Shown here piece by piece: positions 532 to 16,854 of a stretch of DNA of 64,000 nucleotides. Each line of letters begins with the position of its first letter. Positions within the stretch are counted from its first letter, which is position 1. The translations under genes and the position numbers were made by a program. Source of the stretch: an uncultured delta proteobacterium (lineage in GTDB: Bacteria > Desulfobacterota > Binatia > UBA9968); assembly GCA_963847445.1 (NCBI GenBank), contig CAWJZV010000008.1, positions 96,001 to 160,000 on the forward strand, written 5' to 3'. The notes under the pieces were generated by a model that did no database searches, had not been told where the DNA came from, and saw nothing but the letters and a program-made list of their open reading frames with translations.

Positions 532-947
532 TTACGTAAATGGATTGAGCAGTCGAACACCTAATCCTTCAAAATGATCGAGGTTCCGCGTACCACTGTC
601 AGATCATGGGTCAATGCGGTGGCGGCGATCTGTTTGTCGATAGCGTTTTCTGGATGCGGCACTCGCAGTCGACCCCACACCTGCGCTTCATCGTGAGCGA
701 AATTGAGAATATGGTCTTCGAACTCTCTCAGCAGGAGTGCAAGCCATGATTCCAATCGTCTTGCCTGCCTGGTATCTCCTCGGTGCCGAATCAGTTCGAT
801 GCCGCGGCGTATTTCGCCTATGGTAATCACGCTGACGTAGAGCTAGTCGCCATTCACTTGAGCTTGTTCGAAGAAACGAATGACGCCGGGATTGGCTTTA
901 TCGCGCTTGCGGGCTTCGCTAACGACGTTGGTATCAATCAAGTACAT
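532..947 (-). pseudogene. vapC: PIN-domain (VapC/FitB-like) toxin, disrupted
   Basis: ATG at 947 gives MYLIDTNVVSEARK. In-frame TAG at 845-843. Continues ITIGEIRRG and DKQIAATA. A 1-nt frameshift near 590 restores TRNLDHFEGLGVRLLNPF, ending TAA at 532. Confidence 0.85.
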
Positions 948-1167
948 TAGAACTGTTTTTGTCTTGCACGCGCTTAAAGTCGGAGTCTTTGCCCACATTC
1001 GGCATTGCGGCGATCGCTTGAGCGAATGATCGTTTGCGTGGTTTCAACAATACCTGCGCGAGGATTTTGCGATGTTCAGCCTCGGCGTTGGTGCCGTGTC
1101 GCCCGGCCCTCGACTTGAGCGCTTTGATGATGTTCTCATCGACATTTCGGACAATTAGGTTTGCCAT
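934..1167 (-). CDS. FitA-like ribbon-helix-helix antitoxin
   Basis: MANLIVRNVDENIIKALKSRAGRHGTNAEAEHRKIL. GGAGGG RBS precedes ATG 1167. Overlaps the PIN toxin start. Confidence 0.85.
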   Translation of the reverse strand: MANLIVRNVDENIIKALKSRAGRHGTNAEAEHRKILAQVLLKPRKRSFAQAIAAMPNVGKDSDFKRVQDKNSSNVLD

Positions 1168-1700
1168 ATTCCCTCCGATCGAATCCGATGATTGCAATGA
1201 TATCATTCGACTCCCTAGCCGCCAAGATGCTGTGCGATCCGGACTCGTTATGGGCCGTCTATCAAAAAGGGCGTCGCGTCTGCTCTTGGCATTTAGCCAG
1301 AACGGGTCAATCTTGAAGGCGTCGCCCGCTCCCTTGTTTTCTCTTATCCTCGCTATTACCAACAGAACAAGAACGCCCGGCTAGTGGAAAGCAAAGGGTT
1401 CAAGTCGGCTTTTTGCTCTTAGCCAATATTTCGTCGATCTTTTGAACCATCTGGATAGCCTCTCTCTTCAGCAGGGACGCCAATAGTGACCCCATTAAAT
1501 TGCCGACATGTTATTGCAATTTTTGTACGGCAGCTTCGGCACAGCGCTCGCCATCCATGGCTGCCGAGACGATGACGCAGGCGAAGCGAATAGCGTGTTA
1601 AATGGTTCTTGTCGCTCCTAATATCGGCGGCTCTTGACCTGTCTGACCGAATGAACCGAAGGCAATGCAATCGAACTGCGTCGCTAGTTGATGCACGCGA

Positions 1701-9391: not shown

Positions 9392-11804
9392 ATGTCTGAT
9401 TCCAATCCAGCCACCGGCGCCTTGGCCGGCCTGCGTGTCCTCGACCTGACCGGCCGCATGGGCGGCTATTGCGGCTTACTGCTGGCCAATCTTGGCGCCC
9501 AAGTATTGCTCATCGAAGCGCCGGGCGGCGATCCGATGCGCCGCGAAGGGCCGTTCCAAAATACCACGCCCCATCGCGAACGCAGCTTATCCTTCGCCGC
9601 TTATCATACCAACAAGCATGGCGCGGTTTTGAATCTTGAAGATGCCAATGACAGGCAAAAATTTCGTGAGCTGGCGGCCGATGCCGATGTGGTGATCGAA
9701 GACAAACCGTTTGGCTATCTCGACGCTTTATGGCTCGGCTACGCTGAGCTGCAAAAGATCAACCCGGCGCTGGTGCTGACGTCGATCAGCGGCTTTGGCC
9801 GCACCGGACCCTATCGAGAATTCAAGGCGCCGAGCATTGTCGCCTTCGCCATGGGCGGACTGATGAATCTGTGCGGCCATCCGGGCCGCGCCCCGCTCAT
9901 GGGTCCGTGCGATGTGGCCTATCATCTGGGATCGGTGCATGCGGCCTTCGGCACCATGGCCGCGCTGTTCAACCAGCGCGCCACGGGTGTCGGCGATCAT
10001 GTCGATATATCGCTGCAGGATGTCTTGGCCGCCGATCCGTTTTTGCGCATTATTTCTCGATACAGCGTTACCGCGGAAGTGCCGGAGCGCAGCGGCCATA
10101 GCCAGTCGACTACCGTGGCGGAAACCTATCAGTGCCAGGACGGCTACGCGCGCATTTTCGTCAACCAGCCGGAGCATTGGCGCCGCTTCGTCGAGTGGTT
10201 GGGCAAACCGGCGGAACTGCTCGATCCGAAACTGGAGAATGTTCAGAGCCGCTTCGCGCTGCGCTCGATGATCGATCGTCTGGTCGAAGCGCGCACGCTC
10301 AACTATCCGGTCAAGAAATTCTTCGAGGAGTTTCAGACCAATCGTTTAGCCGCGGCGCCGATCAATCCGCCGAGCGGTTACGTTCTCGATGACCAGACCA
10401 AACATCGCAACTATTTTGTCGAAGTCGATCACCCCGAGTTGGGCAAGCATCGCTTTCCCGGCGATCCCTATAAGTTTTCCGCCAGTCCCTGGCGTATCGC
10501 GCGCGGCGCACCGCTGCTCGGCGCCAGCGCTGACAAAATTCCCGAGGAATTTATCGGCCCGTCCACTGTGGCGCGACGGCGTGGCGTTAGCGACGACTGC
10601 GAATGCGGCGATGCGCAAACCTCTCGAAGGTATTCGCGTGATCAGTTTCCCGACGGGAATCGTCGGTCCGGCGCTGGCTGGGCTCCTGGCCGATCAGGGC
10701 GCTGAGGTGATTACCATCGAAGCCAGCCGGGTCATCCGCAGCCCGCAACGGGGCCAGCGTTGGCAGGTAGCGGCGGATCTCGAAAGCAACCGCGAGCGTA
10801 AGCGCATCGCTCTCGACATGAAAAATCCCGAGGGGCTGGAGCTGGCGAAACAATTGATCGCCAAATCGGATGTGGTGGTAGAGAATTTCAGCGCACGGGT
10901 GATGGCGAGTTGGGGGCTGGATTATCCGCGCATGAAAGAAATTCGCCCGGACATCATCATGGCAAGTTTGCAGGCTTTCGGTCAGACCGGTCCGCGGCGC
11001 GACTATGTCAGCTTCGGTCCGATCCTCATGGCCTATTCCGGCATGACTTATCTCTGGCGCGATCCGCAGATAGAGCGGCCGGGTGCCGGCAGCCAGACCG
11101 CCTTTCCCGACTACATTGCGCCATCCTATGGCGCGGTGGCGATCCTCGCGGCGCTGCACCATAGAGCCCGCACCGGCGAAGGGCAGTACATCGACATCTC
11201 GCAAGCCGAAACCGCCGCGTCGATGATCGGCCCGGCGTTATTGGAACTGCTGGTCAACGGCCGCGAGCCCGAACCCCAGGGCAATTTCAGCGCGACGGCG
11301 GCGCCCCATGGCTGCTACCGCTGCAACGGCAACGATCGCTGGTGCGCCATTGCCATTGACGGCCAAGAAGAATGGAAACGATTCTGTGAAAGTATCGGCC
11401 ACCGCGAATGGCTCGCCGACGCGCGCTTTGCCAGCCCCGCGGCGCGCATCGCCAACCGCGCCGAGCTCGATGCCGAGATCGAAGCATGGACGAGCAAGTA
11501 CACACCGCATCAGTTGATGATCCTGTTGCAGCGCGATGGCTTCGCCGCCGGGGTTGTCCAGACGGCTGAAGATTTGTACCGCGATCCGCACCTGCGCGAG
11601 CGCGGCCTGGCGCGGGATGTGCATCATCGCGAGGTCGGCTGGGTAACCAGAGCCGGCCCGACGGCACGGCTGAGGCACAATAGAGTTATCACCGACGACC
11701 CGGTTCATGTCGCCGGCGAAGACAACGAAGCGGTATTGGGCGATCTCCTCGGCATGTCGGCCGAGGATATTCGTTGGTTATACGAACGCAAAGTGCTGCG
11801 TTAG
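9392..11804 (+). CDS. Tandem two-domain CaiB/BaiF family III CoA-transferase (frameshift near 10565)
   Basis: ALAGLRVLDL...SISGFGRTGPY, then KPLEGIRVI...DVVVENF...FGQTGP in overlapping ORFs 9053..10705 and 10389..11804. Confidence 0.85.
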
Positions 11805-11861
11805 GCACGCCGCTTAATCATTCGCCGCTGCCTTGGCAGCGGACAGGCGCGGGAGAGAAAG

Positions 11862-13002
11862 ATGCTGCAAGGTTATCGTCTGTTTGACGCCGATGCTCAT
11901 GCGATGATGAGCCCGCGCATGTGGAAGACCTTGCCGCAAGAGTTCGTGGCGCGCCGGCCGCGGCCGACGCGGGTGCATGACATCGCTGACATGGGACGGT
12001 GGACCAACGGTTGGTTGGTCGAGGGACAAATCATTCCCCACGCGTTAGGCCCTGGCAGCCAACCCGGCAATGAACCGGCGCGGGTGCTCGAAGAGTTCGG
12101 CGCCAAGACCCACAGTCCGGAATTTCCTCTCAGCGGTTTCGATCTATCCGACACCGGCGCGCGCCTGCGCGGCCTGGATTACATGGGCATCGATCACCAG
12201 ATGCTCTATCCGACCACGCTCTATGCGCGCATGACCAACGATCCGGCGTTCGAAGCGGCGCTGATGCGCTCGTACAATCGTTATGTCGGCGGCCAGTGCG
12301 CCGCAGCGCCGCAACGGCTCAAGTGGGCCGGGCTCTTGCCGCTGCGCGACGCCCGTCAAGGCTGCGCAGGCGTTGGCTGAGATGAAAGAGCTGGGCGCCA
12401 CTGCCGCCGTGGTTTACGGCACCGCCGGTGACCGCTTGCTGTGTCATCCCAGTTTTACTCCGGTGTGGGATGAGTTCGCTCGATCCGGTCTGCCGTTGTG
12501 CGTGCATATGGGCATGAGCTATCCGCCCTTCGCCGATGTCTGCAATGGCCTGCTCGCCGCCCATGGCATCGGCATGAGTCTGCCGGCACAGATGGCGTTT
12601 GTCGCCATCGTCGGCCATGGCATGCTCGACCGCTATCCGAATTTGAAAGTCGGCTTTCTCGAATTCGGCGCCGAGTGGATGCTCTACATGGTGCCGCGCC
12701 TCGATCACTACCTGCCCATCGACCGCAGTCAGATGCCGATCAAAACCGAAGTGCCGCAACGCGCCGTTGAAGAGTACGCCAAGTCGGGCAGGATTTTCAT
12801 CGCCGGCGAAGCCGACGATAAATTACTGCCGCAGGAAATCGAGCTGCTCGGCGAAGATCAGATTCTCTACTCCTCCGACCTGCCCCACGGCGAAGGCCGC
12901 CACAACGCCGCCAAGGAAATCATCGCGCGCAAAGATATCAATGAAAGACAGAAGCAGAAGATTCTCTACGACAACGCGGTCAACTTTTTCGGCGAGCCGT
13001 GA
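11862..13002 (+). CDS. Amidohydrolase_2 family protein (frameshift near 12362)
   Basis: DADAH, LDRYPNLKVGFLEFG and YSSDLPH motifs. Confidence 0.88.
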
Positions 13003-13683: not shown

Positions 13684-13834
13684 AGGTTATGCCGTTTATT
13701 ACCCGTAACCTTGCATACCGAGCCCTTGAGCCCCGTCTTCTCATTGTGGGAATTTGTTACGGGTTGATTAATCAGATTACACTGTAGTAATTAGACACGT
13801 TCGCCCGTTCACAAATTACTGCCTAACCAAACTG

Positions 13835-14401
13835 GTGACGTTCATGACTTGGCAAAATTCTGATCTAGTTGTCTACCACGGAAGTGACGAAGTATCAGCA
13901 AATCGAATACGTAAAACGTCAATGACTTCGCAAAATGGGATAGACCTTAAGCTATGTAAACCACGTACGGACTTTGGCCGAGGATTTTATACTACAACAA
14001 ATTTACACCAAGCGCGGAACTGGGCAAATCTGCGTGCGAAGAGATTAAACGCTGCGAGTGCTAACTCCGCTAGAGCAACGGTAATACAATTCAGTGTTAA
14101 GCGGGATGAATTTACTCGACTGAATACTTTGTGCTTTGTCACTGAAGGTTTGAATCCTGGGAACTCCGACTATTGGGAGTTTGTCAGTAGTTGTAGGAAC
14201 GCAACGATCTCTGACCATCAATTTAAGCCCGACCCAGCGCTTCCTGCTACGTCTAACTATGACGTGGTAATTGGGATCGTATCCTTATGGCCGCAGACGT
14301 TAGTTGTTAAGGATTGCGATCAAGTAAGCTTTCACACTCCTAAAGCAATCACGTTCCTCCTTAGTCCAACACTTATTTTAACTGGGAATCCTTATCTTTA
14401 A
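13835..14401 (+). CDS. DUF3990-like protein, predicted ADP-ribosyltransferase fold
   Basis: VYHGS, DFGRGFYTTTN..QA..WA, YDVVIG and QVSFHT.KA motifs. AT-rich. Start may be ATG 13844. Confidence 0.8.
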   Translation: MTFMTWQNSDLVVYHGSDEVSANRIRKTSMTSQNGIDLKLCKPRTDFGRGFYTTTNLHQARNWANLRAKRLNAASANSARATVIQFSVKRDEFTRLNTLCFVTEGLNPGNSDYWEFVSSCRNATISDHQFKPDPALPATSNYDVVIGIVSLWPQTLVVKDCDQVSFHTPKAITFLLSPTLILTGNPYL

Positions 14402-14424
14402 CCAAATTACAGGAGAACAGTAAC

Positions 14425-14700
14425 ATGCCAATAATTGATTCTTCTATTCCACCTATTCAGATCGACGAATATTGGTATGTTGTCCGAAAGACTGTGGAGG
14501 AAGTGTTTAACTGTAAGGACACCTCCGGTGTCGATAGGCTACGAACTGAAATACTTCGAAGCAAAGCGGATGAGCAGATATTGTTCTACCATGCTGAACC
14601 ATTAGACGTGGCAGCGGATCTTTCAGGCAAGTCTCCTGGAGAAGAGGAGATCAAAAAATACAATCAACTAGTTGAAAGGCATCGCAGATCGATACCATGA
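14425..14700 (+). CDS. Small helical protein, possible antitoxin (DUF3791-like partner)
   Basis: 91 aa with an AGGAG RBS, 23 bp after the DUF3990-like gene. Contains LFYHAEPLDVAADL. Function inferred from context. Confidence 0.65.
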   Translation: MPIIDSSIPPIQIDEYWYVVRKTVEEVFNCKDTSGVDRLRTEILRSKADEQILFYHAEPLDVAADLSGKSPGEEEIKKYNQLVERHRRSIP

Positions 14701-14738
14701 AGGTGTTCAGCAAGGAAAACCGAGTCGTAATAAGGAAA

Positions 14739-15713
14739 CTAAAGTAAAAATTCGCTTGATTCCAAACGTTCGTCGAGGGGGAGTTCCAAAATTTCCCGCA
14801 AGAGTTCTGTTCGAAGTACATCCGACGAAGTCGTGATTGGGGCGTGAAATGCGTATCGTGTTTTTAAATAAAGAGGCAATCCTTGTTCAATACGTGACGC
14901 ACGTACCACAACCTGATACTTTGTGCTATCTGGCGGTAAATTGGCAATATCGCCCTGAATGATCATTGTTTCCCAACCTACACCTCCCAACCTCCCGTCA
15001 GCTTTCTGTTTATACGCTTCGTCGCTTACAATTATCACTTTATGCGCCAACGCCAATTCGTTGCACATCCATTGGGGAAGATCCATACCGCGTCTAAGAT
15101 TAAACTTGTCTAGCCTCGCTTGAATACCTTTGTCTATCAGAAAGAGAGCAAGTTCTTTTACCCATTCCACCGATTCTTCCGTTTTAGAGGTATGGCTTAT
15201 GAATACTCGTATCGACTCCCGAGGTTTGCCCTCGATTGTTTTTCGGATTCCTTGAATCCGATCATAAACTTCTTTGTGTAATACGTGGACGATAAGGCTC
15301 GCGCTGTTTTTCTCTATACTACCAAACCCACGATGTAGTGCTGACAGTGCCTTTTGACTCTGAATACCCCCAGCGCCCGCCCCAAGTAATGGTGCTGCAA
15401 TAGATCGAACTGACGGCTGCTCACTTGCAAACTCGCCAAGAGTCTTACCGATTAGCTCGATTGCATCGACTGTTGACGACATTCCTTCAACAGACGCTGC
15501 ATAGGCAACGAACTGTGCAATATTTTCACCGCCTTCGAAAGGTAATATTTCGACCTCCCCGAGAGCCATTCCCTCCTTCGGGTGAGGGATAGAATAATGT
15601 TCCAATGATCGGGCAACAAAACGAGTGACGGTTCCGGCGGAAGAGCATGGTAGAACGATCAAGTCGGACGGTCCATCAAAAAGATTGCCGAGTCGCACTT
15701 TTACGTACGCCAT
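14739..15713 (-). CDS. Macrodomain plus SEFIR/TIR-like fusion protein
   Basis: N-terminus VKVRLGNLFD..DLIVLP and SIAAPLLGAGAGG (macro). C-terminus RVFISHT, WVKELA.FL, LDKFNLRRGMDLPQWM, YKQKADGRLGGVGWE and LPLYLK (SEFIR/TIR). Confidence 0.85.
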   Translation of the reverse strand: MAYVKVRLGNLFDGPSDLIVLPCSSAGTVTRFVARSLEHYSIPHPKEGMALGEVEILPFEGGENIAQFVAYAASVEGMSSTVDAIELIGKTLGEFASEQPSVRSIAAPLLGAGAGGIQSQKALSALHRGFGSIEKNSASLIVHVLHKEVYDRIQGIRKTIEGKPRESIRVFISHTSKTEESVEWVKELALFLIDKGIQARLDKFNLRRGMDLPQWMCNELALAHKVIIVSDEAYKQKADGRLGGVGWETMIIQGDIANLPPDSTKYQVVVRASRIEQGLPLYLKTRYAFHAPITTSSDVLRTELLREILELPLDERLESSEFLL

Positions 15714-16041
15714 GCGTATACCTCGAAACTGGTTTGGTGATTATTAGCACTTGATACGGAGACATCCTTTTTGGCAACGTGTTCCGCTCGTTTCGACTAA
15801 TCCCATACCGCAAGTCCCACGGAGTACTCATCTCGTGATTCGTCATTGCCTAATGTGGTTTCAGGTTCTCTGTCTAGGCAAATCGCACGCACAAGAATTC
15901 CGAACGATTTTTCAACCTATCAGCCAGAAAATATACTAGATGCGTTGAAGATCATGCAAATATCAAAACCCCTAGAAGTGGCTTCCGGGGAAACTTCTTG
16001 TAAAGCAAGCGTAAATTTCTTTGGGAACTCGGGTTTAGTTT

Positions 16042-16854
16042 CTACTTCCGATCTTCCGGCTTGACGTATTTCACCGTGCCGCCGCCTTTTTGCGAGTGCA
16101 GGTAGCCTTCGACGTCGTTCAATGGATTGGTGTAATAGCGCAGGCGGTGTTGCACCAGGTCGTCGGCGCGCAGCGCCATGTCGAAGGGCAAATCTTTTTG
16201 CATGTAAGCGGCGATCTTAGCGTTCTCCAAGGTCGGGCCGTTGCGGCTGGCGAGTTCTTTCGCCAGGGTGTCGACGTAGCTGTCCAAGTCTTTTTCCGGC
16301 ACGACGTCGGAAACTAAACCGACGCGCTCGGCTTCGACGCCGGTCAGGTTTCTGCCGGTGAGCGAAATAAAGAAAGCTTTCTTGAACGGGATTCCCGCAT
16401 GAAATAGCGACGGTGTCGCGGTGGCGCCGTAGCTGCCGCGGATGACTTCGGGCATGCCGAACTTTGCCGTGTCGGAGCTGATGACGAGATCGTGACCGTT
16501 GATCATCGCCAGACCGCCGCCCAGGCACCAGCCGCGCACTTTGGCGACGGTGACTTGCGGAAGTCTACGCATGATGTCGACGATCTCGGCGACGCCGCCG
16601 AAGCCGCGGGTGCGGCGCCGGTTGTCCTGGCCGCGCATGTCGTAGAGATCGCGGCCCGAAGAGTAGGAGTCGCCGGCGCCGGCGGTGACGATGCAGCGAA
16701 TTTTGTCGTTGTTCGCCAGCTCGCGCAGGGTGGTCGCGATCTCGGCGAGCAGGGCGACGCTCAGGGCGTTTTTCTTTTCCGGCCGATTGAAGGTCAGCCA
16801 GGCGATGCCGATGTTTTCGTCGATGTTGGCGGTGATTTGTTTCAGGTCGGACAT
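16042..16854 (-). CDS. Enoyl-CoA hydratase/isomerase (crotonase) family protein
   Basis: LTFNRPEKKNAL, SSGRDL, GWCLGGG and FGMPE motifs. Confidence 0.92.
   Translation of the reverse strand: MSDLKQITANIDENIGIAWLTFNRPEKKNALSVALLAEIATTLRELANNDKIRCIVTAGAGDSYSSGRDLYDMRGQDNRRRTRGFGGVAEIVDIMRRLPQVTVAKVRGWCLGGGLAMINGHDLVISSDTAKFGMPEVIRGSYGATATPSLFHAGIPFKKAFFISLTGRNLTGVEAERVGLVSDVVPEKDLDSYVDTLAKELASRNGPTLENAKIAAYMQKDLPFDMALRADDLVQHRLRYYTNPLNDVEGYLHSQKGGGTVKYVKPEDRK

Follow-up and report, generated by a model that had tools for sequence, protein, structure and literature searches.

What is the function of a protein that carries a macro domain and a SEFIR domain in a single chain, and does it act alone in defense, as part of a module with its neighbors, or in ordinary metabolism? 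The question is raised by one gene of the window (i.e., the entire 64,000-nucleotide stretch of uncultured delta proteobacterium DNA that was analyzed), for which the ORF listing gives an intact reading frame of 324 amino acids with an ATG start at 14739..15713 on the minus strand. Homologue alignments begin at residues 2 to 4, and the start codon is, therefore, considered correct, while scans for promoters and terminators around the gene returned no excess over shuffled sequence. The features of the gene and its predicted product are as follows.

14739..15713, minus strand: whole gene for the macro-SEFIR protein, 324 amino acids plus stop codon (ORF list; homologues of similar length)
15721..15724, minus strand: Shine-Dalgarno-like GAGG, 7 nt 5′ of the ATG (direct sequence reading)
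15246..15713, minus strand: predicted macro domain, residues 1 to 156 (profile match to 2dx6, Foldseek, AlphaFold2 model)
15675..15689, minus strand: GNLFD, residues 9 to 13, in the loop after strand 1 (translation; aligned with GDIT of 2dx6)
15636..15650, minus strand: LPCSS, residues 21 to 25, in place of the canonical macro NAAN (2dx6 alignment)
15366..15392, minus strand: PLLGAGAGG, residues 108 to 116, glycine-rich loop (aligned with PLLGTGVGG of 2dx6)
15210..15245, minus strand: variable linker, residues 157 to 168 (pLDDT below 50 at residues 161 to 163; low identity)
14784..15209, minus strand: predicted SEFIR (TIR-like) domain, residues 169 to 310 (Pfam, PADLOC, BcSEFIR profile, Foldseek)
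14970..14972, minus strand: codon of E248, the candidate catalytic Glu (first turn of helix 245-257 in the model; conservation)
14739..14783, minus strand: carboxyl-terminal tail, residues 311 to 324, plus stop codon (conserved only within the close clade)

The earlier note had assigned the amino-terminal half of the protein to the macro domains from the motifs GNLFD and APLLGAGAGG, which, like GGVGWE in the other half, are exact translations of the DNA (residues 9 to 13 at 15675..15689, residues 107 to 116 at 15366..15395, and residues 243 to 248 at 14970..14987, respectively). Taken alone, the window protein stays below the cut-off of the Pfam Macro model (PF01661), with an E value of 0.11 and 12.9 bits where 22 are required. 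A profile built from 38 family sequences matches TTHA0132 (2dx6) with E=1.1e-11 over residues 2 to 155 as well as the macro domains of alphaviruses, PARP9, and DarG, and three relatives exceed Pfam Macro's own cut-off (P0161 with 32.3 bits, P0165 with 24.2, and P0202 with 22.9). Structure prediction followed by fold comparison, which the earlier note had recommended, returned macro domains as the top Foldseek matches. In the AlphaFold2 model (mean pLDDT of 89.6), the macro half comprises six strands and four helices, with a pLDDT of 85 to 98 per 10-residue block, and PDB matches include 2dx6 (TM 0.75), DarG with ADP-ribose (TM 0.72), and the Getah and chikungunya virus macro domains (TM 0.77). 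All 33 PDB matches listed among ranks 1 to 50 are macro domains or macro-scaffold designs, with the exception of BcSEFIR, and those from the viral library are likewise macro domains, phage entries annotated as "protein-ADP-ribose hydrolase" included. As judged from these profiles and the model, residues 1 to 156 are a true macro domain with a predicted three-layer α/β/α fold, and the earlier assignment is thus borne out by the fold and by retention of the glycine-rich loop.

That loop, PLLGAGAGG, corresponds to loop 2 of macro domains, which binds the diphosphate, and is highly conserved among relatives (P108 in 247/249, G111 in 249/250, G113 in 241/250, and G115 in 246/249). GNLFD presumably occupies the adenine-contact site of macro domains, with G9 being Gly in 226 of 230 relatives and F12 being Phe in 221 of 234. 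The intervening position 10, which aligns with the D of the GDIT stretch of 2dx6, is Asn in the window protein and varies among relatives, 122 of which have Asp, 88 Asn, and 17 Ser. In MacroD-type macro domains, catalytic loop 1 consists of an Asn followed by a GGG or GxG stretch. The profile alignment places "VNAANNYLKLGAGV" of 2dx6 opposite "VLPCSTAGTVTEFV" of the family, such that the canonical loop 1 of 2dx6, "VNAAN...GAG," corresponds to "VLPCS..GT." No MacroD-type loop 1 was found in the family alignment, in which S, N, or D occupies position 24 (in 202, 18, and 8 relatives, respectively) and a Gly triplet is absent. The replacing stretch is itself conserved, with P22 kept in 236/238 relatives and C23 in 223/238, and a further polar residue, S74, is strongly conserved (229/248). 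Because the pocket is non-canonical, with loop 1 replaced and position 10 variable, the binding of ADP-ribose is argued from the fold and loop 2 only.

The carboxyl-terminal half, which had been described as SEFIR-like, scores well above the Pfam SEFIR cut-off (PF08357; 42.3 bits against a cut-off of 23, E=1.2e-10), while the Pfam TIR_2 match is weaker (E=2.1e-8). Its profile matches BcSEFIR of Bacillus cereus (5y8e) with E=2.7e-42, and the Foldseek TM score to the same structure is 0.70 for this half. The family profile also matches the human Act1 SEFIR domain (E=4e-9), and the PADLOC bSEFIR model matches with E=1.2e-35 over profile positions 37 to 188 of 412. Residues 169 to 310 are, on these profile matches, a SEFIR domain closely related to BcSEFIR, as the earlier note had anticipated.

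A more specific suggestion was that the Glu of GGVGWE may represent the catalytic Glu of TIR domains, and this has fared less evenly. Of 198 aligned relatives, 197 have Glu at position 248, which opens helix 245-257 of the AlphaFold2 model within its first turn and aligns with the Glu of "GGVGTE" in BcSEFIR, whereas human Act1, whose SEFIR domain is non-enzymatic, has His or Ile in this column. A two-step alignment extends the comparison to the TIR domains: E248 and the conserved Glu residue found in four of five Macro-TIR_2 relatives occupy one column of a MAFFT alignment, and the Glu column of these relatives aligns with E208 of AbTir, within the stretch "WTNYE." E208 is described as the catalytic residue of AbTir (10.1101/2022.05.07.491051). 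A forced hhalign comparison, in contrast, puts E248 out of register, with the Glu of TIR domains lying two residues downstream of it, and single TIR_2 relatives compared with the PDB were uninformative or ambiguous. When profiles are aligned directly with TIR NADases, the match breaks off near residue 237, before E248, because the SEFIR domain has an insertion of approximately five residues (KADGR.) ahead of the Glu; the matches to AbTir and PdTIR span the first three strands. The superfamily fold and, probably, a single invariant Glu at the opening of helix αC are shared with TIR NADases such as AbTir, SARM1, ThsB, and those of plants, while the motif reads W-E rather than their WxxxE. The conservation and the two-step alignment support E248 as the probable equivalent of the TIR catalytic Glu, while the two-residue offset and the early end of the direct alignments speak against it.

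Both halves of the protein appear to be under constraint. In the broad alignment (A1), mean pairwise identity is 0.32 for the macro domain, 0.12 for the linker, and 0.43 for the SEFIR domain, and in the close clade (A2) these values are 0.68, 0.35, and 0.80, while residues 297 to 324 are 0.63 identical in A2 versus 0.22 in A1. The aligned sequences, therefore, present two conserved domains and an unconserved linker. With a pTM of 0.58, the AlphaFold2 model does not define an interface of the macro domain with the SEFIR domain.

We infer an NADase activity, the binding of a ligand and its identity, the direction of regulation, and an anti-phage role, and propose, with what we consider an even chance of being right, that the protein works by itself as an effector that depletes NAD+ and is gated by a ligand of the ADP-ribose type. 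It would represent a self-contained and horizontally mobile immune effector, the SEFIR domain of which, once several copies assemble, would convert NAD+ to ADP-ribose and nicotinamide using E248, with a chemistry modeled on that of single-gene bSEFIR and the TIR NADases. Loss of NAD+ would then stop both the infected cell and the phage. The amino-terminal macro domain would serve as the control module by binding an ADP-ribose-containing ligand, for which free ADP-ribose, an ADP-ribose conjugate of the type produced by TIR or SEFIR domains, and an ADP-ribosyl mark set by a phage enzyme are the candidates. Positive feedback, which the earlier note had raised together with the sensing of ADP-ribose or of phage-ADP-ribosylated proteins, would be possible, since ADP-ribose would also be a product of the SEFIR domain. 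For anti-phage systems of the TIR type, one study predicts that macro domains are regulators targeting cADPR (PMC9503650).

The closest known system is bSEFIR, the single-gene SEFIR system of Bacillus sp. NIO-1130 (Millman et al., 10.1101/2022.05.11.491447; PADLOC PDLC03957), in which a single protein is reported to deplete NAD+ through its SEFIR domain (10.1101/2024.02.11.579819), the products of SEFIR domains being ADP-ribose and nicotinamide (10.64898/2026.01.28.702374). Phage protection by this route is known for the Bacillus protein only. The two share a homologous SEFIR domain, a GGVG-x-E motif that aligns via BcSEFIR, a single-gene organization without a conserved partner, and, following the bSEFIR selection rule of its authors, a SEFIR match that is stronger than the TIR match. 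That rule also places the SEFIR domain of bSEFIR at the amino terminus; a further domain of approximately 220 residues comes after it. In the window protein, in contrast, the SEFIR domain is carboxyl terminal and preceded by the macro domain, the chain ends 14 residues after it, and the carboxyl-terminal domain of the bSEFIR profile (approximately positions 200 to 412) is not matched. The protein falls outside the bSEFIR architecture rule because of the position of its SEFIR domain and the missing bSEFIR carboxyl-terminal domain.

Type II Thoeris likewise pairs NAD+ processing by a domain of the TIR superfamily with a macro domain that recognizes an ADP-ribose-type molecule, which in the case of the macro-SEFIR protein would be the presumed ligand. 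Two reports agree with the statement of the earlier note that TIR and TM-macro reside on separate proteins, and describe the ThsA macro domains as binding ADPR/IAD or His-ADPR and then oligomerizing (PMC11204291; 10.1101/2024.01.03.573942). Thoeris employs two or three separate genes and kills via transmembrane helices, whereas the macro-SEFIR protein is one chain with no other domain. Its macro domain, unlike that of ThsA, is confined to 156 residues, and no ThsA macro domain was present among the best 50 Foldseek matches, the nearest being 2dx6, DarG, and alphavirus macro domains. Membership of type II Thoeris was rejected, given the fused gene and the lack of any match to ThsA or ThsB models at E≤1.

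TTHA0132 and the macro domains of DarG and alphaviruses remain the nearest in profile (best match, E=1.1e-11), fold (TM 0.72 to 0.77), and aligned glycine loops, and differ in that the macro-SEFIR protein has a replaced loop 1, a nearly invariant Cys, and no DarT partner. Assignment to DarTG was tried and dismissed (PADLOC DarG model, E=0.043; NCBIfam, 11.9 bits against a cut-off of 250; the neighboring gene being of the DUF3990 type and unconserved). A further resemblance is to the effector-associated-domain (EAD) cassettes of NTPase-centered conflict systems, as relatives of the macro-SEFIR protein adjoin EAD1, EAD5, or EAD7. ADP-ribose-processing macro domains are mentioned among the variable carboxyl-terminal modules of such systems in the survey by Kaur, Iyer, Burroughs, and Aravind (PMC8195603). 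The window protein, in contrast, has no adaptor domain and no adjacent STAND or NTPase gene.

The family is large, with 3,675 cluster representatives at E≤1e-3 and 1,110 homologues of nearly the same length, the best 120 of which span 324 to 341 amino acids. The gene is scattered across at least 13 phyla, copies from different phyla share 61 to 71% identity, and in a quick tree the well-supported 19-row clade with the window protein mixes at least six phyla. Names and precomputed Pfam assignments of the 120 listed homologues mention SEFIR and TIR_2 only, the macro half being missing from them. Full-length copies were found neither on plasmids, where none of 130 matching records spans 80% or more of the query, nor in phage records (0 of 2), and the literature searched contained no description of a macro-SEFIR fusion.

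Beyond SEFIR, the same macro subtype is joined to TIR_2 (e.g., P0171, P0210, P0219, P0220, and P0245, with further examples in P0249, P0252, P0257, P0261, and P0263), lies carboxyl terminal of a CAP12/Pycsar-type TIR (P0215, P0231, and P0232), and in P0254 accompanies DUF4062, which more recent work describes as the NIR NADase. It therefore recurs with four NADase-type folds, namely, SEFIR, TIR_2, CAP12-type TIR, and DUF4062/NIR, and, since the order of macro domain and NADase-type fold varies, their coupling looks functional rather than steric. EAD7 is joined to the whole macro-SEFIR unit in P0122, and P0270 combines macro, SEFIR, and AAA modules and matches bSEFIR profile positions 37 to 348. 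Fusions of the macro domain alone to the adaptors EAD1 or EAD5 (P0248, P0256, and P0269) suggest that it may, in addition, have an effector function of its own.

These recurrent pairings invite a bolder reading, which we advance tentatively and consider somewhat unlikely, in which the macro subtype is a general ADP-ribose gate of NAD+-cleaving immune domains that binds their own product or a phage mark and drives assembly of the NADase, as a one-protein Thoeris. The first few turnovers would in that case lead to an all-or-none collapse of NAD+, and one protein would generate, read, and execute its own signal. A separate idea, that the macro domain defeats phage NAD+ reconstitution (NARP1) by removing ADP-ribose, was rejected on reasoning, because one-to-one sequestration cannot match cellular NAD+ pools; macro domains bind or de-esterify ADP-ribose without destroying it.

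A 2.3-kb islet with a GC content of 40 to 51%, flanked by DNA of 55 to 66%, surrounds the gene and, like the clade of mixed phyla, is in keeping with mobility. As to hallmarks of mobile elements, no tRNA was found within 10 to 20 kb, and repeats were only 12 to 16 nt, a size expected by chance. The islet is shared with an immediate neighbor of the DUF3990/PDC-M13 type (13835..14401), which has a weak ART-PolyVal match (E=0.15), and with an ORF of 91 amino acids (14425..14700), both of which are convergent with the macro-SEFIR gene and hence not in one operon with it. At a second, distant locus (L049), a DUF3990-like gene (E=3e-9 to that of the window) and a PDC-M10B gene lie no more than 1.5 kb from the macro-SEFIR gene. 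Among the 63 sources searched, only these two, the window and L049, have a DUF3990-like gene within approximately 10 kb. No neighbor is conserved in the 56 loci compared, the largest neighbor cluster comprising 7 of 56 sources, which supports the view that the protein is a single-chain unit without a conserved partner gene and agrees with the stand-alone role envisaged by the earlier note.

The same note had advised testing homologues for enrichment in defense islands. Defense neighbors were enriched around distant relatives, with PADLOC defense matches in 8 of 93 near ORFs versus 0 of 66 far ORFs (p=0.02), and not in the close clade that includes the window gene (4/109 near versus 4/87 far). 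The DUF3990/PDC-M13-like neighbor and the EAD7 fusion of P0122 likewise speak for a defense context. Across all loci, the difference was weak (12/202 near versus 4/153 far; p=0.20). Some PADLOC "defense" neighbors proved to be housekeeping genes by Pfam, i.e., DNA polymerase I (L046), FtsK (L051), and ABC ATPases, and such neighbors were left out of these counts. A defense, toxin-antitoxin, or mobile-element marker was found by Pfam or PADLOC within two ORFs in 18 of 56 sources, a count that has no control, and many copies are flanked by housekeeping, often metabolic, genes.

Four other explanations were weighed against a ligand-gated effector. The macro domain may be a working ADP-ribosyl hydrolase that strips the marks of phage ADP-ribosyltransferases from host proteins or nucleic acids, or degrades ADP-ribose-derived signals, with the SEFIR domain providing self-association or a second effector; this we regard as unlikely. 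Its nearest structures are indeed hydrolytic macro domains (DarG, 0.72; alphavirus nsP3, 0.77; phage hydrolase entries), the macro domain of P0161 matches the DarG model with E=8e-11, the placement of the macro domain alone on EAD1 or EAD5, the usual effector position, fits an enzyme at least as well as a sensor, and C23 (223/238), within the stretch replacing NAAN, and S74 (229/248) are conserved polar residues. The MacroD-type loop 1 with its Asn and GGG is, however, absent, the DarG score of the window protein is 11.9 bits against a cut-off of 250, Glu at 248 in 197 of 198 SEFIR domains would be unexpected for a mere scaffold, and the repeated pairing with NADase-type folds is better explained by coupling through a product or ligand. 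The macro domain might instead act as an antitoxin-like brake within the same chain, occupying or removing an activating ADP-ribose species until the toxic SEFIR NADase is set free, either by a phage factor or because the ligand is lost, for which macro antitoxins of the DarG type provide a precedent and with which the joint conservation of both domains is consistent. The predicted regulation of TIR anti-phage systems by macro domains via cADPR, as outlined in PMC9503650, may be read in the same direction. Against this stand the flexible linker and a model without a fixed interdomain contact (pTM of 0.58), as well as the CAP12-TIR fusions, in which the reversed domain order renders a steric lock improbable, and we hold such a brake to be decidedly unlikely.

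That the protein has no immune function, being instead a housekeeping or signaling enzyme of NAD+ and ADP-ribose metabolism, would accord with the lack of defense enrichment in the close clade (4/109 versus 4/87), with flanking genes that are often metabolic, and with the absence of full-length copies from the plasmid and phage records. We nevertheless consider it improbable in light of the low-GC islet, the patchy and phylum-mixing distribution with 61 to 71% identity across phyla, the effector-associated domains and the bSEFIR-like AAA module that are found fused in relatives, the enrichment of defense neighbors near distant relatives, the markers within two ORFs in 18 of 56 sources (counted without a control), and the literature found, in which bacterial SEFIR domains are described only in defense. 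A module akin to DarT/DarG, with a macro domain that would reverse a modification made by the adjacent ART-like DUF3990 product and its 91-amino-acid partner, draws on the shared low-GC islet, the weak ART-PolyVal match (E=0.15), and the recurrence of DUF3990-like and PDC-M10B genes near the macro-SEFIR gene at L049. It appears highly improbable, as a DUF3990-like gene lies within approximately 10 kb in only 2 of 63 sources, conservation is lacking for every neighbor, the convergent genes do not form one operon, and DarG model scores are negligible.

If the ligand-gated effector is correct, its significance lies in the control of immunity. The depletion of NAD+, carried out by SIR2, TIR, and SEFIR domains, is central to the immunity of bacteria, and for few of the single-protein systems that act in this way is the trigger known. 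The macro-SEFIR family is large and spans many phyla, and its sensor-like macro half has a known class of ligand, so that the proposed switch would be directly testable in vitro. As no PADLOC model covers the macro-SEFIR architecture, current rules, which expect an amino-terminal SEFIR domain, would miss or mislabel it. That a single macro subtype recurs with four NADase folds hints at a principle of regulation that can be reused and that, if true, would connect the sensing of products with phage ADP-ribosylation and with abortive infection.

The macro-SEFIR gene is an unbroken open reading frame (ORF) of 324 codons (14739..15713, minus strand) with an ATG start and a GAGG sequence located 7 nt 5′ of it, and its translation places GNLFD at residues 9 to 13, APLLGAGAGG at residues 107 to 116, and GGVGWE at residues 243 to 248, as quoted in the earlier note. 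The assignment made there of an N-terminal macro fold and a C-terminal SEFIR domain was confirmed, because profile, Pfam, and fold matches agree on both halves. The C-terminal half matched Pfam SEFIR with 42.3 bits (cutoff, 23) and, more weakly, Pfam TIR_2, while the PADLOC model for bSEFIR, a known single-gene SEFIR defense system, matched the protein (E=1.2e-35) over profile positions 37 to 188 of 412 only. A family profile of 38 sequences, also the basis of the AlphaFold2 model, matched the crystallized SEFIR domain of Bacillus cereus (BcSEFIR, 5y8e; E=2.7e-42), with GGVGWE facing GGVGTE, and, across residues 2 to 155, the Thermus macro protein TTHA0132 (2dx6; E=1.1e-11), with further matches to the macro domains of alphavirus nsP3, PARP9, DarG, and TARG1. 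Pfam Macro remained below threshold for the N-terminal half alone (E=0.11), and its own cutoff was passed by three relatives. The AlphaFold2 model (mean pLDDT, 89.6; pTM, 0.58) comprises two well-defined domains with a low-confidence linker between them. Foldseek comparison with the PDB matched the macro domain to 2dx6 (TM, 0.75), DarG with ADP-ribose (0.72), and the Getah and chikungunya virus macro domains (0.77), and the SEFIR half to BcSEFIR (TM, 0.70); viral models returned macro domains only. The Macro domain was absent from the precomputed Pfam lists of all 120 listed homologs, for which the source names shown were TIR or SEFIR only.

A word-index search recovered 1110 near-length homologs, the best 120 of which are 324 to 341 aa long and 66 to 100% identical, and an exhaustive search returned 3675 representatives at E<=1e-3, of which 86 reached E<=1e-30. 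Constraint is evident on the macro and SEFIR domains, with none such on the linker, as mean pairwise identity for macro, linker, and SEFIR is, respectively, 0.32, 0.12, and 0.43 across the broad alignment, rising to 0.68, 0.35, and 0.80 within the close clade. In 270 fetched proteins aligned to the domain HMMs, where counts are not independent because approximately 120 of the proteins are close relatives, the glycine loop is nearly invariant (P108, 247/249; G111, 249/250; G115, 246/249), D17 (230/234), P22 (236/238), and C23 (223/238) are as constant, and position 248 is Glu in 197 of 198 relatives. The canonical loop 1 ('VNAAN...GAG' in 2dx6) is replaced in this macro subtype by 'VLPCS..GT', position 24 being S, N, or D, while position 10, aligned to the D of 2dx6 'GDIT', is D, N, or S in the family and Asn in the window protein. 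The fold, together with loop 2, argues for binding of an ADP-ribose-type ligand. The near-invariant C23 (codon at 15645..15647) belongs to the 'LPC[S/N/D]' stretch, the counterpart of the canonical 'NAAN', and, with the conserved Ser74 of 'AASV', may mark a distinct ligand pocket or chemistry.

The Glu of GGVGWE had been suggested to be the TIR catalytic residue. Direct profile alignments to TIR NADases end near residue 237, immediately before a SEFIR-specific insertion, and Macro-TIR_2 relatives were used as a bridge between SEFIR and AbTir. The Macro-TIR_2 profile places a conserved Glu opposite that of 'DWTNYEL' in AbTir (8g83), in which E208, on helix αC, is reported as the key catalytic residue, with W204 and T205 alongside (10.1101/2022.05.07.491051). 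When 20 SEFIR and five TIR_2 domains were aligned with MAFFT L-INS-i, E248 fell in the Glu column of four of the five TIR_2 domains, the fifth relative (P0252) having a Glu register ambiguous by two residues. This bridge reaches E208, whereas hhalign, in global or low-threshold mode, pairs the TIR Glu with M250, which lies two residues C-terminal to E248. In the model, the helix after strand C carries E248 in its first turn, and human Act1, a non-enzymatic SEFIR protein, has His or Ile at this column. E248 is a likely candidate for the equivalent of the TIR catalytic Glu.

Pfam scans of the 150 best representatives and one longer protein, read against the matched ranges of the exhaustive search, established that the macro subtype is mostly paired with SEFIR. 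Other relatives combine it with TIR_2 without a SEFIR match (e.g., P0171, P0210, P0219, P0220, P0245, P0249, P0252, P0257, P0261, and P0263), with a CAP12/Pycsar-type TIR to which the macro domain is C-terminal (P0215, P0231, and P0232), with TIR and Mrr_cat followed by macro (P0239), or with DUF4062 (P0254), a domain renamed NIR and reported to be an NADase in a 2026 preprint; P0122 has the order EAD7-macro-SEFIR. That four NADase-type folds have repeatedly been joined to the subtype, with either partner first, speaks for a functional link mediated by a common small molecule or by assembly, and against a fixed steric arrangement of the macro and NADase domains. Use of the subtype is, therefore, wider than NADase partners, given its fusions to Ser/Thr kinase-GGDEF, HTH-KAP NTPase, DUF2203, CarboxypepD_reg, and PD40 repeats (P0176, P0213, P0189, P0260, and P0268).

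One scan of a species-representative genome collection yielded 62 loci, 55 of which, in addition to the window, hold a homolog at E<=1e-20. Clustering of all ORFs within 5 kb identified no conserved neighbor among these 56 sources (largest cluster, 7/56; next, 5/56), the members of the two largest clusters among the scanned ORFs being ABC transporters and histidine-kinase or response-regulator proteins; this makes the macro-SEFIR gene a stand-alone unit. Copies with 61 to 71% identity come from Pseudomonadota, Acidobacteriota, Chloroflexota, Bacteroidota, Planctomycetota, and Zixibacteria, and a quick IQ-TREE tree placed the window protein in a well-supported clade of 19 rows in which at least six phyla are mixed. 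None of the matching plasmid (130) or phage (2) records covers >=80% of the protein, the matches being to the SEFIR half only. Rhodoplanes elegans (locus L032) carries tandem diverged paralogs (9968..11116 and 11646..12854; identity to the window protein, 37% and 29%). In two loci the homolog is split into two ORFs (L037, 9989..10219 and 10302..11102; L059, 202..900 and 917..1225) as the result of a frameshift, a stop codon, or faulty assembly, and in L030 and L008 the called ORFs are missing part of the N terminus. Loci L033 and L034, from bins labeled Lachnospiraceae and Oscillospiraceae, encode identical macro-SEFIR proteins and share an adjoining 594-aa ORF, which is a very recent transfer or a binning artifact.

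Enrichment of homologs in defense islands, proposed as a check in the earlier note, was assessed by comparing two ORFs per side (204 ORFs) with control ORFs >6 kb away (153) using PADLOC at E<=1e-10. Raw counts with self-hits removed were 20/202 (near) versus 7/153 (far) (p=0.07). Generic matches (ABC ATPases, TPR, and a desaturase) were then dropped, and two near matches that Pfam identified as DNA polymerase I and FtsK were discarded; with this Pfam check applied to the near set and the far set uncorrected by Pfam, counts were 12/202 versus 4/153 (p=0.20). By clade, they were 8/93 versus 0/66 (p=0.02) for distant relatives and 4/109 versus 4/87 for the close clade (>=45% identity), so that support from defense islands is real among distant relatives and lacking in the clade to which the window gene belongs. 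A defense, toxin-antitoxin, or mobile-element marker (Pfam or PADLOC; near ORFs, uncontrolled) lies within two ORFs in 18/56 sources, examples being AbiU2, PIN-MazE, GmrSD, a type IIG restriction-modification enzyme, Fic, FRG, an integrase, and transposases.

The gene itself lies in an islet of approximately 2.3 kb (approximately 13700..16050) with 40 to 51% G+C, against 55 to 66% in the flanks, bordered by genes for an HhH-GPD glycosylase and an enoyl-CoA hydratase. No tRNA, integrase, or meaningful flanking repeat, direct repeats included, was found in its surroundings. Two further islet genes, convergent with the macro-SEFIR gene on the opposite strand, and a related pair at L049, a Lachnospiraceae genome bin locus, are as follows:

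13835..14401, plus strand (window): DUF3990 gene, 188 aa (Pfam, E=4.7e-15; PADLOC PDC-M13B, E=4e-16)
14425..14700, plus strand (window): 91-aa ORF of the same low-GC islet, no family
11958..12422, minus strand (L049): DUF3990-like gene
12379..12852, minus strand (L049): PDC-M10B gene

The islet DUF3990 protein also matches ART-PolyVal weakly (E=0.15), and a search of 5.8 billion proteins gave just 4 homologs of the 91-aa ORF. Together, the two genes are a candidate for a small toxin-antitoxin or defense module. The L049 genes lie approximately 1 kb downstream of a distant macro-SEFIR homolog (9995..11023), the DUF3990-like gene being 29% identical to that of the window (E=3e-9), a recurrence that could be due to chance, to a common preference for the same islands, or to a functional relationship.

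By analogy, macro-SEFIR appears to work most like bSEFIR and a one-chain Thoeris, as a member of neither. It falls outside the bSEFIR architecture, as it has no bSEFIR C-domain and its SEFIR domain does not stand at the N terminus. In the 637-aa relative P0270 (macro-SEFIR-AAA+), the bSEFIR profile reaches the AAA part (positions 37 to 348 of 412), which suggests that the C-domain of canonical bSEFIR is ATPase-like. A ThsA/ThsB pair and a DarTG pair were both rejected for the window protein on profile matches and neighbor clustering. The literature searched yielded no description of the fusion; macro domains are mentioned, as a general remark, as predicted regulators accompanying TIR antiphage systems (PMC9503650).

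SEFIR is reported to yield ADPR and nicotinamide, as do TIR and SIR2 (10.64898/2026.01.28.702374), D40A, predicted to break SEFIR-SEFIR contacts, to abolish defense (10.1101/2022.05.11.491447), and ThsA macro domains to oligomerize with ADPR/IAD or His-ADPR bound (PMC11204291; 10.1101/2024.01.03.573942). We give an even chance to a stand-alone NAD+-depleting effector, in which the SEFIR domain would deplete NAD+ via E248, its assembly would be gated by a macro domain binding an ADP-ribose-type ligand, and product feedback would be possible. The two folds, their conservation, the autonomy of the gene, and the pattern of fusions are established by the results above; catalysis, ligand binding and ligand identity, which way control runs, and a phage phenotype are predicted features of this proposal.

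The macro domain could instead be a hydrolytic effector, which we consider unlikely. Fusions in which it is the sole partner of an EAD5 or EAD1 adaptor (P0248, P0256, and P0269) show that it can also be used by itself in the place an effector usually takes; the family alignment of the subtype lacks a MacroD-type catalytic signature. Somewhat less probable still is a macro domain acting as a brake within the same chain, and a non-immune enzyme is improbable. Cooperation with the neighboring DUF3990 pair is the most doubtful, such a neighbor occurring in the window and L049 only among 63 sources searched. The macro-SEFIR family is large, and its predicted switch is open to direct test.
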